NCBI RefSeq assembly: GCF_048403405.1
Contig: NZ_CP183129.1
DNA length: 64,000 nucleotides
Source of the DNA: Escherichia coli
GTDB taxonomy: Bacteria > Pseudomonadota > Gammaproteobacteria > Enterobacterales > Enterobacteriaceae
Direction: 5' to 3' (one strand)
Position 1 is the stretch's first letter; each line of letters opens with the position of its first letter. Shown in pieces: positions 42,001-51,000 of this stretch. Position numbers: made by a program.

Positions 42001-45000
42001 ACGATACTGTCCGTTCTGTCCGTCGAATGCCGCACCGACGCTACGGGCTGCAGTTGAACAATATTTCGTCTGGATTTCTGTTCCGCTGACCAGTCTGTCT
42101 GCTCCATTTCTGGCATTATTATCACCGAGGATCCGTGCGTTTTTCAGACGGACTCTGTCGACAATATGGTTTCCCCGTTCAGCGGCAAACCCATGTCCCT
42201 GCCCTCCGGAAGCAAACATTTTCTCATTTGTACTCCAGGTTTCCGGCAGTTTCATGAGAATCAGACCATTCGCCGTTGCATCGGAAATAAAACCGGTGTG
42301 AGAACGTTCATAAATGTCCTGACACAGTGTTTCTGTTTCGCGACAAAGAGAGGAGCAGTACCATTCCGGATCCGGCTTATGATTTTCCGGGGCATGATGT
42401 ACTTCTGTCAGCCCGCAGGAGGCACAGATACGAAGCTCATCCACGTGGTGGAATGATACAAAACGGCGGCCTTCTGAAAAGGGGTACCAGTCACCGCCGT
42501 CCAGGCAACGATCGAGAAAATCGTCATTCGCTTCCGGTGATAAATTCAGGCGGTTCCGGAAGAGGGTTTTCAGTTCATCAGGGGTAAATGACAGGCTCTC
42601 TCTCAGCTTTTCGTTGAAACCCGCCATGTTTCTTTCATACCAGGCATTGTCCAGTAGCCAGTTTCCGTCTGCCAGTTCAAATTCCCTCAGCTCTCCCCGG
42701 GAAATCCGTTGAGAAATGAGCGTCAGCCAGATGCGCTCCGTCAGTGAGTCAGGAAGGCTGTAATCGTTTTGCAAACTGGTCAGCCACGATTTACTGTTGA
42801 GCACCGGTTGTTCTTCCAGTGTCTGGCGGATGGCACAGGTCAGTTTTTTCAGCGCCTGGATCTGGCTGGCCGCCCATAGCAGCGTCACTAATGCAGCCAG
42901 CCAGTACAACAACCCGCCCCACCACATCAGTGACGGTGAAATATCGTACTGTAACGCGATCAATGGTGCGCATGCAGAACACGCCATAAGGCAAAAGGCA
43001 GTATAAAAACAGCAGTAATACCCGTTAATTTCCTTGCTGATATCTTCTGGTGTGATCCCGTTCTGCTGAATGTTTTTGATCTGCAGGGGAACAGCCAGCA
43101 GACCACCGGCGAGAGCGGTGGTCAGAATAAATTTCACAGAGTCAAAGGTGTGAGCCTCCAGCGCGATATGTTTACCATCAAGTCCCCACATGAAGCTGAT
43201 GATCATTCCGGCAATCGTCAGAAATACGCCTGCCAGCCAGCGAATATGGAACAACCGGGTTATGCGTTCGGTGATATAGCCAGCCAGTAAGGCCGGGCCG
43301 AACAGACACAGCAATATGAGCCCTGCCAGCGCAGACGCCGTGCTGATTAATGCTCTGAACAAAAGGCGAAGAATGGCAAATCCTGCGATCAGCAGGATCA
43401 GCGCGCCGACTATCTGTAACATAGTCACTCCGTGATGAATATCATGTTATTGTTAATGCGTAAGCTTCCGGGGAACTCATATTGACGCGTTTTTCAGGCG
43501 CGCGTCATCGGCGGCGCATAGTAAGCGACTCGTCAGAACCGTATTGATATTTACTGAGAGCTCAGATCAACTTTCCAGGGCAACAGATCGCGTACCCGGT
43601 TTGCCGGCCAGTCCTGGATATGTTCAATGACGTAACGCAGCCACTTTTCTGGCTCCACATTGTTCAGACGGCATGTGCCGATCAGCGAGTACAACACCGC
43701 CGCATGTTCACCACCGCTGTCGGAACCCGCGAACATCCAGTTTTTCCGGCCTACGGCCACTCCCCGTAAGGCGTTCTCTGCGATGTTGTTGTCGATTTCC
43801 ACCCAGCCATTACTGCAGTACACGTTCAGTGCATCCCACTGTTTCAGCAGGTATGCGAACGCTTTTGCCGTATCTGAGTGACGCGACAGTGTTTTCATCT
43901 GTTGCTGTATCCAGTCATACAGTGACTGCATCAGTGGCGCGGCTCTGGCTTTTCTTGCCGCCAGACGCTGTTCTGCTGAACAGCCCCGGACCTCTGCCTC
44001 GATGGCATACAGTTCACCGATACGCTGCAGGGCTTCCGTGGTGATGTAGGTGGGCGCTCTTGCATGCACATCGTGGATTTTTCTCCGGGCATGAGCCATA
44101 CACGCGGCTTCCGTTATTCTGCCGGATTCGTATAAGGTAACCACCGTAAGCATCGGCCTGAAGCACACCGCTGTAACCGGCCAGGTGATTTTGTGGATGG
44201 ATACCTTTCCGGTCCGGACTGTACGCGAACCAGACCGCCGGGGGCATCTGTGAACCGGCGTTACGGTCATCACGGACGTAGACCCACAGCCGGGCTGTCC
44301 GGGTTTTACCGCTGCCCGGCTCCTGGACCGGGACGGGGATATCATCAGCATGGACTTTACCGGGCATCAGCACATACTGGCGCAGGACGTCATACAGCGG
44401 CTCCAGCAGTTCAGCAACAGCACCTGTCCAGCGCCCCAGTGTGGCACGGCTCAGCTCCACTCCCTGACGACGGTATATTTCTGACTGGCGGTATAACGGC
44501 AGATGGTCTGCATATTTCCCGGTGACAACATGGGCCAGAAGCCCCGCTCCGGCATAACTGCGTGCAATGGGTTTTGAAGGTACTGGTGCCTGCACGATAT
44601 GGTCGCACCGGCAACAGGCCTGTTTCGGACGTTGTGTTTCGATAACCTTAAAGGCGCTGCTGATAAGCTCCAGTTGCTCTGACACATCACATCCCAGAGA
44701 ACTGAGTTCACCACCACAGGCAGGACAGCATTCCTCTTCCGGCCGGATAACCCGGGTTTCACGGGGAAGTGAGGCCGGTAACGGTTTACGGGCTGAAGAC
44801 TGGCGCAGGGCGGATGGCAGTACCGGGTCATATTGCTCACCCAGCGTTTCCGCCATTTCTTCCTGAAGTGCGCTGATTCGCTCCTGTGCTTCCTGTATCT
44901 GCCGTTCGGTTTTTGCACGAAGTTTTTCTGAGCTTTTACCGAACTGCATACGTTGCAGTTTCGCAACCAGCGCCTTCAGCCGGTTGATTTCGGAAGCATA

Positions 45001-48000: not shown

Positions 48001-51000
48001 TTCTCCGACATGACTTCTTGTACCATGGCAAGTGCCATAGCACGCAGTTTTTCGATGTCATTCGTGGTGTTGAGAGCGGAGATATCCATACAGGGGAGTA
48101 TACCACTCCAGATACGGATATTCATTATTTTTCACTGAGTTAGCAGTGTATTTTGCGTGTTTTCAGGGCGCAGTTCAGGTTCATTCTGCCAGACCCATTT
48201 CGTCAGGTCATGTCCCTTAACCTGCTGCCAGTCAACACCGGCAATCAGCCAGTTAAACTCGTCGGGAGTGAGGTGCCAGGCAGCGTCATTTGCACGTGGC
48301 CAGCGGAAGCTGCCTTTGTGCAGACGGCGGGTACACAACCACACCCCGTGTTTATCCCACCGGAGAACTTTGATACGCGAACGGGCTTTGTTAACAAAGA
48401 CGAAGGCGGCTCCCTCATGCCATGTCGACCGGAGTTCATCCTGTATATACTGCGTCAGTGAGTCGATGCCCCGGCGCATGTCAACAGGTTTAATTGCGAT
48501 GAAGACATTATCAGGACTGAGCATATTTGAGTGCCCTGAAGACATCGGTAAGTTGTGACGGCTGACAGCACATCCGTACTCCACCGGGAAGGAAGAGCGT
48601 GACTGGCTCATTCGTGACGGGCTGTGGTACATCAGCATGCAGTGGTGGCGCAATATGAACGGGAAGAACGGTCGGTTCATTTGCCCGGCGTTCAGCTTTT
48701 GCGACATCCTGCGGCCATTCGCGAAGTGATGTGAAGGGAATATCGTTGAGTTCACAGTATTGCTGACGTGTAAGACCACTGGCGCGCCAGGCAGCAACGT
48801 GCTGCCTTTTCTGTTCAATGGTCCATCGGGGTTTTGACATCGATTATCTCCGGTAAGTTGGTGAATGGATGTCGGTAATACTAACTGACCGAAGATCCCT
48901 GTGAAGATGACTTCCCCGTAACGACACGTTAATGCCAGCGAATGTGGCGTTGAAGATCCGTTGCGCCGGTCCGGGTCCCGGTCATGATGACCGGGACCAC
49001 AGAGAGGCGATGGTTCTGTCAGAAGGTCACATTCAGTGTGGCCTGACCGTTATACCCTTCAGCGCTGCTGCCGCTGACGCTGTGGGCATAACCGGCCTGA
49101 ACGCCCAGGGTGATATTTTCCCGGACACGGGCTTCCAGTCCGGCCTGCAGGTCCAGTGATGTGCCATTCTGTGAGGGAGAGAACGTCATCCCGCTGCCTG
49201 CAGTGGAGGTCCCCACACGCATATCACCCCGGGAGCTGAAGGTGCGGATAACGGAAGGCTGTACCCACCAGTTCACCGGCAGTTCACGCACACTGTGTTT
49301 TGCACTGTCACGCAGGGGGGCACGGGATGAGGTGCCTTCACCAAAGGTCATATCGTTGTGGCTGCCCAGACGGAAACCGGCACGCACATGTTGTGCACTG
49401 CCATGCCCGAACTTCACATAACCGGCGTTGTCCTTACCGTCATCCAGCGAAAGCCCCTGCCAGGTGTACTGCAGCCGTGGCTCCAGCATCAGGTTGTCAG
49501 TGATACTGAAGGGCAGACCGGTTTCCAGTGAGCCCAGCCAGCCCCGGCCCCGTGCGCGGAAGTCGTTATTGCCCGATGACGCTTTCATACTGTGGCGGGT
49601 TCCCTGTGCCACTATGTCAGCCCACAGGCCGGAGGAGGTGTGTGTCAGGTTCATATATCCGCCCAGGCTGCCGGCATCATCCCGGACCGTGCCGGCACGG
49701 GAGCCGTCATCATCCTTAACATCAACGGAAGAATGGCCTGCAGCACCATATATCCCTGCGGTCACAGACATACCGGCAACATCTGTTCTCAGCAGGTCAC
49801 CCTCCAGGCGGACGAAGCCATAGCTGCCGCTGCTTTCCGGCGTGGCCCCACGGGCAATACCGCCGTTGTTATCGTGACCGAGATGGCCGCCCTGAATGCT
49901 GAGACGGACGCTGTTATTTTCACCGTTTACACCGGTCTGATGGCTGCGTGAGCCTGCCAGAATCCGGTCATAGTCCATTGCCTGTGTCAGCATGGAGGCA
50001 TACAGGGGGACTTCTGCACGATAAGCATTTTCACTGCGCAGATACCAGCTCTCATCACTGTCCCGGTTGAGGGAGTAGTTAAAGGCCCCGGCCTGCAGCC
50101 TGTTCCCCTGGACAAAGGCCCCTTCCTCCGTGGTGGCACCGTTAATGGCTTCCACCACCTGAATACCCTTACCGCTGGTCGCCAGCCCCGACGCACTGTT
50201 GCCGGCGTTCACCAGGTTCAGGATGGTTTTTCCGGTTGCCCTGCCGCCGTCAATGACCAGTCTGTCAGCATTGTTCTGTGCCATATCCGGGCGTACACGC
50301 AGGCTGATGGTGCCATTCTGCCCGTTCAGGTTTTTCACTTTCAGAGTCGCCGGCACAAATGTCCCTGTGCGTGAGGAGGTGAAATGAATCTGTCCGGCAT
50401 GGCTGAGGTCATCCACCACCGACTGCACCGTGGCGTTATCGGGGATATTCCAGGTGGCATCGGAGGCGAGAGTGACATTCGTGGAGTCAATGGCACCGTT
50501 CAGCACAGTGCTGCCGGTCAGCTTCAGGGCTGTACCGCGCTGAGCAATGACATCCGTGGTGACGGTACTGTCGTTCAGCGTCAGCGTGCCTTCATTCAGG
50601 TTGACGGCTTTCTGGGTGAGTGTGGTGTTGCTGACAGTGAGTGTGCCACTTCCTGATTTTTCCACGCTGCCGTTACCGGTGAGAGAGCCTCCCTGCAGGA
50701 GTGCATCGCCTTCACGGATGGTCAGGGTATCGTTGTTCACCGTCTTCCCGGAAAGGGTAAGTATGGCGCCGTTATTCAGCGTGGTGGTGCCCGCCAGTGT
50801 GCCGCCCCTGGCGGTGAACAGTCCGCCATTTACCGTGGTATCCGTGGCCGTATCACCGGCGTTCAGCGTGAATGAACTGCCTTTTTCCAGCATCAGGGCA
50901 TCCGCCTGACCGCCCCCGATACGGAATGCCGTTCCGTCGCTCCGGGTACCACTGACAGCGGCCCCGGAATCGGCCAGCAGTACACCGCCATTCCCCATGG

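Follow-up and report, generated by a model that had tools for sequence, protein, structure and literature searches.

The spacer between a yeeR-like gene and flu (agn43) in this Escherichia coli genome holds two insertion sequences of the IS66 family, one nested in the other: ISCro1 (element A) lies inside an ISEc49-like element (element B). The arrangement arose from three ordinary, datable events; we hold this reading with great confidence. The window analysed is the whole 64,000-nucleotide stretch, and both elements lie on its minus strand (43460-48927) in an Ag43-bearing island of uropathogenic-type E. coli (CFT073 / ATCC 25922-type strains). In this reading, B (2766 bp) first entered the 120-bp spacer, roughly 30 bp upstream of where the yeeR-like gene starts, duplicating GTTAATGC. 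ISCro1 (2699 bp) then inserted in the same orientation into B's non-coding tail, 61 bp from the right tip, duplicating GGCGCATA and moving B's right terminal repeat 2.7 kb from the remainder of B. Lastly, a loss of 5 bp in the ISCro1 tnpC cut its DDE catalytic domain in two. Nothing in the data of this analysis contradicted the nesting or the order of events.

Locus, boundaries and gene content

Including terminal repeats, the nested unit spans 43460-48927 (5468 bp); the range 43551-48840 given in an earlier note covers no more than the DNA between the outermost stop and start codons. Homology to the yeeR side ends at 43459 and homology to the K-12 DNA flanking flu starts at 48928, and the K-12 spacer is the window minus 43460-48935, an exact string match. 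The features are as follows.

43452-43459, no strand: outer target-site duplication GTTAATGC, left copy, from the B insertion; identical to the right copy
43460-43520, minus: detached right end of B, 61 nt, with terminal inverted repeat GTAAGCTTCCGGGGAACTCAT...; contiguous with 46223 onward in copies L002, L005 and L013
43513-43520, no strand: inner target-site duplication GGCGCATA, left copy, the last 8 nt of B's right end; identical to the right copy
43521-46214, minus: element A, a defective ISCro1 of 2694 bp (IS66 family); from homology and ends
43551-45117, minus: ISCro1 tnpC pseudogene, split into ORFs 44014-45117 and 43551-44351; flagged "frameshifted" by RefSeq
45137-45484, minus: ISCro1 tnpB, 115 aa, intact; WP_000624622.1
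45484-46161, minus: ISCro1 tnpA, 225 aa, intact, long-N-terminus subtype; WP_001339397.1
46215-46222, no strand: inner target-site duplication GGCGCATA, right copy, from the ISCro1 insertion; identical to the left copy
46223-46523, minus: main part of B's 362-nt tail, downstream of tnpC; three 33-bp-phased repeats (46303-46387) and a hairpin with a 17-bp stem (46452-46468 / 46501-46517)
46524-48089, minus: B tnpC, 521 aa, intact DDE transposase; WP_000354986.1, "IS66-like element ISEc49 family transposase"
48132-48524, minus: B tnpB, 130 aa; WP_000950648.1; PF05717 (E=3.3e-35) and NF033819
48511-48840, minus: B tnpA, 109 aa; WP_000042910.1; NF047593 (IS66 TnpA, E=1.8e-13)
48841-48927, minus: left end of B, 87-nt leader that holds a promoter-like site (48905-48878) and the terminal inverted repeat (reverse complement GTGTCGTTACGGGGAAGTCAT...); K-12 homology starts at 48928
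48928-48935, no strand: outer target-site duplication GTTAATGC, right copy; identical to the left copy

All ORFs of both elements were assigned to the IS66 family by Pfam and NCBIfam profiles, and in each element the order tnpA-tnpB-tnpC is kept on one strand with the genes abutting or overlapping. In A, TnpA matches NF038385 (E=1e-88, residues 13-206) with HTH_Tnp_1 at residues 102-159, and TnpB matches PF05717 (TnpB_IS66, E=4.7e-40) and NF033819; base 45484 is common to tnpA and tnpB, and tnpC starts 19 nt past the end of tnpB. B has a 14-nt overlap between tnpA and tnpB, and 42 nt separate the end of tnpB from the start of tnpC. Its TnpC carries PF03050 (DDE_Tnp_IS66, E=2.8e-90, profile positions 2-283 of 284) together with zf-IS66, LZ_Tnp_IS66 and IS66_C, while its TnpA had no Pfam match and is recognised by NCBIfam alone. 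NF033517 matches TnpC of both.

The earlier note had described two IS66-family elements that differ in sequence and share an orientation, and their gene sets do lie on the minus strand where it had placed them. The proteins share 31% identity in TnpC and 37% in TnpB, TnpA is barely alignable, and blastn gave no significant match between the two DNAs. The counter-case it had named, one IS made to look like two by assembly error, is excluded. Of 44 independent complete genomes covering the 6.5-kb stretch, the best 15 match it at 100% identity, which speaks against an assembly artefact in the sequence.

An inverted-repeat search missed the terminal repeats, which are too imperfect, and the ends were taken from homology breakpoints and then confirmed manually; a scan for the motif GTAAGCG caught A's right end and missed the left, which reads GTAACCG. 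A's two boundaries coincide with homology breakpoints in more than 1,200 genomes. The repeats of A and B start GTAA or GT: A's ends, GTAAGCGACTCG... and GTAACCGGCTCA..., agree at 15 of 22 positions, and B's, GTAAGCTTCCGG... and GTGTCGTTACGG..., at no more than 15 of 21; the left tip of B starts GTGT, not GTAA. Terminal inverted repeats of IS66 elements are reportedly imperfect, about 20-30 bp long, and start GTAA. Rfam, searched over 43300-49100 at a permissive threshold, matched zero RNA families. A promoter and terminator scan stayed near chance (5 promoter-like sites versus 3.5 expected), and only the site upstream of B's tnpA plausibly looks meaningful. Elsewhere in the window a second IS66 cluster (60269-63833) resembles a fusion of IS copies, its flanks being without a match.

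The outer element and its tail

Rejoining 43460-43520 with 46223-48927 gives a restored B of 2766 bp, whose whole length aligns with uninterrupted copies at 96.8% (L002), 99.0% (L013) and 99.9% (L005) identity. The name ISEc49-like is taken solely from the RefSeq product name of WP_000354986.1 and leaves room for B being ISEc49 proper, an isoform of it or a close relative. At a query coverage of at least 80%, B is present in 203 genomes, and it is single-copy per genome.

B's tnpC is followed by a tail of 362 nt, versus 30 nt in ISCro1. Relatives share 86-89% identity with B in this tail, but just about 71% in the genes; a conserved hairpin lies directly after tnpC, and the 10-mer GAAGTACTGA occurs three times at an exact spacing of 33 bp (three helical turns). 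Tandem Repeats Finder returned nothing, the three 33-bp units being too diverged outside the 10-nt core. A small opposite-strand ORF, which RefSeq lists as hypothetical in some relatives, was rejected: its variable sites fall 15/14/16 by codon position, its ATG is absent in B and L013, its frame is broken in L015-L017 and its stop codon is variable. A conserved RNA structure was likewise unsupported (RNAalifold covariation term +0.25; compensatory change in 4 of 87 pairs); the single-sequence fold of the tail gave z = -2.3. Isolated tail fragments (L010, L014-L017) are remnants in IS-rich islands, uninformative on function, and were set aside. It is possible, and in our view rather unlikely, that the tail of ISEc49-type elements is a functional module, made up of phased binding sites for TnpA, TnpB or TnpC or else giving an element-encoded RNA. 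If true, B's lasting single-copy state in this lineage would be explained by ISCro1 having inserted between that module and the terminal repeat.

In principle B could move, solely as a unit of 5468 bp (5.5 kb) with ISCro1 as passenger, its TnpA, TnpB and TnpC acting on the B repeats. That the nested pair is still mobile in this manner would fit the three intact ORFs, the presence of both terminal repeats and a TnpC identical to that of uninterrupted copies. However, all 43 genomes with the junction share locus and flank, B is single-copy there, and no movement was seen; moreover, ISCro1 parts the right tip from the phased-repeat tail, which would cripple B if the tail is needed in cis. We therefore consider continued mobility doubtful.

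Target duplications and the order of insertion

The passage of PMC6778807 that cites Machida 1984 gives the IS66 target duplication as 8 bp. Around the unit, GTTAATGC has one copy in K-12, the restored junction is exact in K-12, and the same duplication flanks a lone B in FDAARGOS_1258. The GGCGCATA duplication also flanks an intact ISCro1 in L006, and independent copies have other 8-bp duplications (TGTCATTC in L003; GTTGCAAA in the relative L012). Three B-like copies (L002, L011 and L013) are without matching 8-bp flanks, and B's boundaries rest on the window locus, L005 and the relative L012. Cutting out A and removing one GGCGCATA restores B end to end, and hence A is nested inside B. The target duplication is thus GGCGCATA for A and GTTAATGC for B.

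The earlier note's description of the two as a tandem did not hold. By ORFs alone the gene sets are adjacent and co-oriented, as they would be had A and B inserted separately into chromosomal DNA and simply come to adjoin, but B's right repeat is on the far side of A (43460-43520), and chromosomal DNA is absent between and around the two. The 61 bp left of A are B's right end and do not match the K-12 spacer, the GGCGCATA that flanks A is B sequence, and the sole chromosomal duplication, GTTAATGC, brackets all 5468 bp; separate adjoining insertions are thus very improbable. Equally hard to credit is that separate IS copies were brought together by homologous recombination or a deletion, in place of A transposing into B. 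The second cluster of the window looks like such a fusion, but at this locus A has perfect 8-bp duplications at its flanks, as does the unit as a whole, and excision in silico restores B and the K-12 site with no base lost or gained. A composite transposon, which needs two copies of the same IS, was rejected, A and B being unrelated in DNA and each single-copy at the locus. That both A and B occur in many different genomic contexts is indirect evidence that the two elements transpose.

All four stages of the nesting are preserved among complete E. coli genomes. The first is the empty site of K-12. In the second, seen in FDAARGOS_1258, B occupies this site by itself and has the GTTAATGC duplication at its flanks (99.95% identity over 3699 bp, gapless). 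The third, B with an intact 2699-bp ISCro1, is found in FDAARGOS_1289 and B19695, which differ from window 40500-49400 by 0 mismatches and a single 5-bp gap and have an intact 523-aa TnpC at the nested site. The fourth is the state of the window, departing from the third by the 5-bp deletion alone. The junction of B's end with ISCro1 is found at 100% identity in 43 genomes, with a constant yeeR flank.

The inner element and its broken transposase gene

ISCro1 was first catalogued in Citrobacter rodentium ICC168 and is common in E. coli chromosomes and plasmids; the ISfinder convention asks for more than 95% identity to the reference element over the whole length. Aligned end to end with an intact ISCro1 of 2699 bp, A shows 99.74% identity, one 5-bp gap and 2 substitutions setting the two apart, and the name follows the RefSeq protein naming of the matching copies ("ISCro1 family" transposase). 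ISCro1 is present at a query coverage of at least 80% in 1276 genomes. The N-terminal extension of A's TnpA, remarked on in the earlier note, is real, its 225 aa being the normal form for its subfamily (NF038385).

A simple inactivating mutation had also been proposed for the frameshift in A's tnpC, and this proved correct. Alignment to an intact ISCro1 copy bearing its own 8-bp duplication places a deletion of CGCCC (plus strand) between 44135 and 44136, shifting the frame after Tyr327 (codon 327). Against 523 aa in intact TnpC, the frame here keeps residues 1-327 and then runs on for 40 residues out of frame. The four IS66 Pfam domains (leucine zipper, zinc finger, DDE_Tnp_IS66, C-terminal) are spread across two frames, with DDE_Tnp_IS66 split into halves that cover profile positions 1-139 and 141-283. 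The deleted allele occurs at one locus only; the genomes that have it number about 41, CFT073 and ATCC 25922 among them. It is absent from FDAARGOS_1289 and B19695, which have ISCro1 at the identical site. By sequence comparison, then, the deletion is a late, simple inactivating mutation in the middle of the DDE domain. A programmed frameshift, such as some IS families use (IS1, IS3), or a sequencing or assembly error, like the apparent indel nearby in the yeeR-like gene of one older ATCC 25922 assembly, has next to no chance of accounting for the break, given that intact ISCro1 in more than 1,000 genomes has a single 523-aa TnpC, that the deletion has no slippery run, that the same allele recurs in dozens of independent complete assemblies (several of CFT073/ATCC 25922) and that two sister strains are undeleted at the same site.

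An ISCro1 end occurs once per genome in CFT073 and ATCC 25922. With a broken tnpC, A presumably cannot make its own transposase and, because it is the sole ISCro1 copy in these genomes, would be stranded there.

Significance and comparison with known systems

Both elements were already catalogued and annotated by RefSeq, and the finding is one of ordinary genome wear. The analysis supplies the exact boundaries, duplications and event order of a two-IS scar, in which RefSeq's adjacent gene sets become one interrupted and one inserted element. The four-stage series (empty, B, B with ISCro1, B with ISCro1 and the 5-bp deletion) provides clean markers for these strains. Beyond correct annotation the importance is small, and the one item that might lead to anything new on the workings of IS66-family elements is the tail conserved in the ISEc49 group. 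The 5.5-kb insert parts the yeeR-like gene from flu; run-on transcription from flu would have to cross both elements, and the two genes might thereby be uncoupled.

A has the ends of ISCro1, its TnpA (WP_001339397.1), its TnpB (WP_000624622.1) and the 8-bp duplication, and differs in lacking 5 bp of tnpC, which makes that gene a pseudogene. In C. rodentium ISCro1 has expanded to 24 copies (PMC3072379), and in ST131 it occupies an IS hotspot within the afa promoter (PMC8764528). The ISCro1 of EC958 is given as 2,824 bp (PMC8764528), against 2699 bp for the copies measured in this analysis.

B resembles ISEc49 in its tnpA-tnpB-tnpC layout, GT-starting terminal repeats, 8-bp duplication and a TnpC of the ISEc49 family by RefSeq name; it differs in being interrupted here and in the conserved 362-nt tail after tnpC. 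The IS66-family elements that have been studied by experiment in E. coli are IS679 and ISEc8, and transposition of IS679 reportedly needs all three genes. A and B share with them the three-gene layout and the 8-bp duplication. However, they are distant relatives (ISEc8-type transposase genes have about 71% DNA identity to A over 860 bp).

As in the islands and prophages of C. rodentium, Shigella and EHEC, an IS lies inside an IS within horizontally acquired DNA, where insertions are low-cost; in C. rodentium, other mobile elements carry more than half of the ISs (PMC3072379). In contrast to nested ISs elsewhere, all intermediate stages are kept here in sequenced strains, and the order of events is directly readable.

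Nested arrangement of two IS66-family elements

Between the yeeR-like gene and flu, the ISCro1 copy (element A) is nested in the ISEc49-like element B, in the non-coding tail that follows B's tnpC and 61 bp from B's right tip. The earlier note had placed the two in tandem, an arrangement at odds with their boundaries: B's right end lies beyond A, GGCGCATA flanks A, and GTTAATGC brackets the whole.

Genes and target duplications of elements A and B
45484-46161, minus, A tnpA
45137-45484, minus, A tnpB
44014-45117 and 43551-44351, minus, A tnpC, broken
48511-48840, minus, B tnpA
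48132-48524, minus, B tnpB
46524-48089, minus, B tnpC, intact
43452-59 and 48928-35, outer duplication GTTAATGC
43513-20 and 46215-22, inner duplication GGCGCATA, directly either side of ISCro1

Element limits were set as homology breakpoints, with each half megablasted against 5,426 complete E. coli genomes. Homology of A to hundreds of other copies runs from 43521 to 46214, and these copies, 2699 bp when intact, have a transposase named 'ISCro1 family' by RefSeq. Homology of B to its other copies runs from ~46214 to 48927, and homology to the K-12 flanks reaches 43459 on the yeeR side and resumes at 48928 on the flu side. The stretch 43460-43520 matched neither A copies nor K-12 flanks by breakpoints and was assigned by reading the sequence: it starts with GTAAGCTTCCGGGGAACTCAT at 43460, an inverted match (15/21) to the opposite end of B at 48927, taken as its reverse complement. 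The two ends of ISCro1 match each other at 15/22 positions. The same ends bound L003, an intact and independent ISCro1 copy whose 8-bp duplication is TGTCATTC, and GTTGCAAA lies on either side of L012, a relative of B. The reported duplication size for IS66 is 8 bp (PMC6778807).

With 43460-48935 removed in silico, the joined sequence has an exact match in K-12, where GTTAATGC is present once. Removing ISCro1 and one GGCGCATA gives a 2766-bp element that aligns full length to uninterrupted copies at 96.8% (L002), 99.0% (L013) and 99.9% (L005).

The reading of two clearly diverged IS66-family gene sets, both on the minus strand, is borne out by ORF positions together with Pfam and NCBIfam, which place all products in the family; B TnpA is placed by NCBIfam only, the Pfam search giving no match for it. 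The B TnpC domain set is complete in Pfam (leucine zipper, zinc finger, DDE at E=2.8e-90, C-terminal), and in A the match to the DDE profile is divided between the two TnpC pieces, at positions 1-139 and 141-283. Protein identity between A and B is 31% for TnpC and 37% for TnpB, TnpA is barely alignable, and no relationship was found at the DNA level. An assembly artefact is ruled out by independent complete genomes: 100% identity over the 6.5-kb stretch is shared by the best 15 of the 44 covering it, including ATCC 25922, and CFT073 has the same B-end/ISCro1 junction.

Order of events

Comparison loci represent each stage of the arrangement.

Stages at the yeeR-flu site
Empty site: K-12 (L004)
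B alone, same site and same duplication: FDAARGOS_1258 (L005), 99.95% identity across 3699 bp without gaps
ISCro1 nested in B and still intact: FDAARGOS_1289 and B19695
B with ISCro1 carrying a 5-bp deletion: the window

Against window positions 40500-49400, FDAARGOS_1289 and B19695 show zero mismatches and one 5-bp gap. By these stages, B inserted at the empty site, ISCro1 then entered B, and the deletion struck ISCro1 tnpC last. The B-end/ISCro1 junction occurs at 100% identity in 43 genomes, all with the same yeeR flank. RefSeq annotates an intact ISCro1 transposase in two; in the other 41, tnpC stands under the generic label 'tnpC: IS66 family transposase', flagged frameshifted in CP009072.1. 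Junction-bearing strains include CFT073, ATCC 25922 (Seattle 1946) and O6:K2:H1 strains, which we take to be of the ST73 lineage.

The tnpC frameshift

Aligned to an intact ISCro1 copy, A has 2 substitutions and has lost CGCCC (plus strand) between 44135 and 44136, changing the coding sense from ...GGT TAC CGG GCG TTA TAC... to ...GGT TAC CTT ATA C.... TnpC stays in frame to Tyr327 and then runs 40 out-of-frame residues to a stop. Since the break cuts the DDE domain midway, the product should be inactive. Programmed frameshifting is ruled out, since no slippery sequence is present at the break and TnpC of intact copies is one continuous 523-aa protein. A simple inactivating mutation, as first proposed from the sequence, thus stands, the 5 bp being undeleted in FDAARGOS_1289 and B19695.

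Mobility and consequences for yeeR

CFT073 and ATCC 25922 each have one ISCro1 end per genome, and therefore no intact ISCro1 transposase in trans; the nearest relative of ISCro1 TnpC is the 61%-identical TnpC at 60306-61880. The ISCro1 copy at this locus is likely stranded. B, with its genes intact and both terminal repeats present, could in principle move, though only as a 5468-bp unit; we saw no signs of such movement, as these genomes each have one copy of B and the junction occurs in no other context. ISCro1-end matches number 5 and 2 in the two strains undeleted at this locus, and mostly 1, with a few of 2-4, in deleted-allele genomes, an uncontrolled comparison that is suggestive of ISCro1 being active only while tnpC is intact.

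The insert lies in the flu-yeeR spacer (120 bp in K-12), ~30 bp upstream of the yeeR-like start (43422, RefSeq model in sister strains). The insert would break any co-transcription of flu and yeeR, and transcription of the IS genes, which are in the same orientation, could continue into yeeR. The yeeR-like ORF in the window (40906-43422, 2517 bp) is intact, as it is in sister strains, and shows no mismatch to L006, which carries intact ISCro1. RefSeq flags this gene 'frameshifted' in the ATCC 25922 record CP009072.1 (2519 bp, L001 3905-6423), probably through an indel error of that older assembly.

The non-coding tail of B

From tnpC stop to right tip, B has 362 nt compared with 30 nt in ISCro1; in the window these 362 nt are split into 46223-46523 and 43460-43520.

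Identity to B
L011 and L012, relatives of B: genes ~71%, tail 86%
L002, an uninterrupted B-like copy: genes 98%, tail 88.7%

The contrast is indicative of separate constraint, of recombination, or of the two together. A conserved 17-bp hairpin lies right behind tnpC, and GAAGTACTGA occurs three times in the tail at exact 33-bp spacing (~0.16 expected by chance) and nowhere else in B. Our best guess is that the tail holds putative phased protein-binding sites. A small opposite-strand ORF, RefSeq-annotated in some relatives, was rejected as a gene for want of a coding signature; covariation gives no support to a larger RNA fold of the tail, and Rfam had no match for it.

Diverged tail remnants occur in >2,300 E. 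coli genomes, K-12 included (at least 80% query cover in ~2,330/5,426). One, in K-12 HMS174 (L016 2501-2794), is a ~80%-identical remnant at a fixed chromosomal site beside IS4 insG; it has lost an internal segment and has a pseudogene of the tnpC C-terminal part. In strain 08_3418 (L011 170-319), the outer end of the tail is present again as an additional copy of 150 bp, with 84% identity to B, which immediately adjoins the complete B-relative and may represent either a lone end or a terminus that was duplicated.

Other IS66 arrangements and island setting

Second IS66-family cluster
60269-63833, minus, whole cluster
63319-63744, minus, tnpA
62972-63322, minus, tnpB
61841-62941, minus, tnpC, C-terminally truncated
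60306-61880, minus, second tnpC, nearly full

Here the truncated tnpC is fused directly to the nearly full one, GTAAGCG ends lie at 60269 and 63833, and the 8-bp flanks are unlike each other; this looks like two elements fused and not clean nesting. In strain EC476 (L009 4001-4454), a B-like right end with uninterrupted tail lies inside tnpC of an ISCro1-like remnant; given this reverse nesting, IS66-family elements insert into one another both ways.

The IS pair sits within a large island (window ~14000-64000, mapped through comparison locus L008) with a group 2 capsule (kps) locus, Ag43, an IS110 element, hha and a CP4-44-like module (cbtA/yeeU toxin-antitoxin, antirestriction, DUF932, IrmA). 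The island presumably resembles the pheV island of CFT073.

Comparison with known elements

By RefSeq protein naming, A is ISCro1, and B's transposase is 'ISEc49 family'. ISCro1 was catalogued from C. rodentium, with 24 copies there (PMC3072379), and has been described in ST131 (PMC8764528). The earlier note was correct in substance, and our one correction is to the architecture. Islands commonly contain nested IS insertions, and finding two IS elements so arranged is ordinary.
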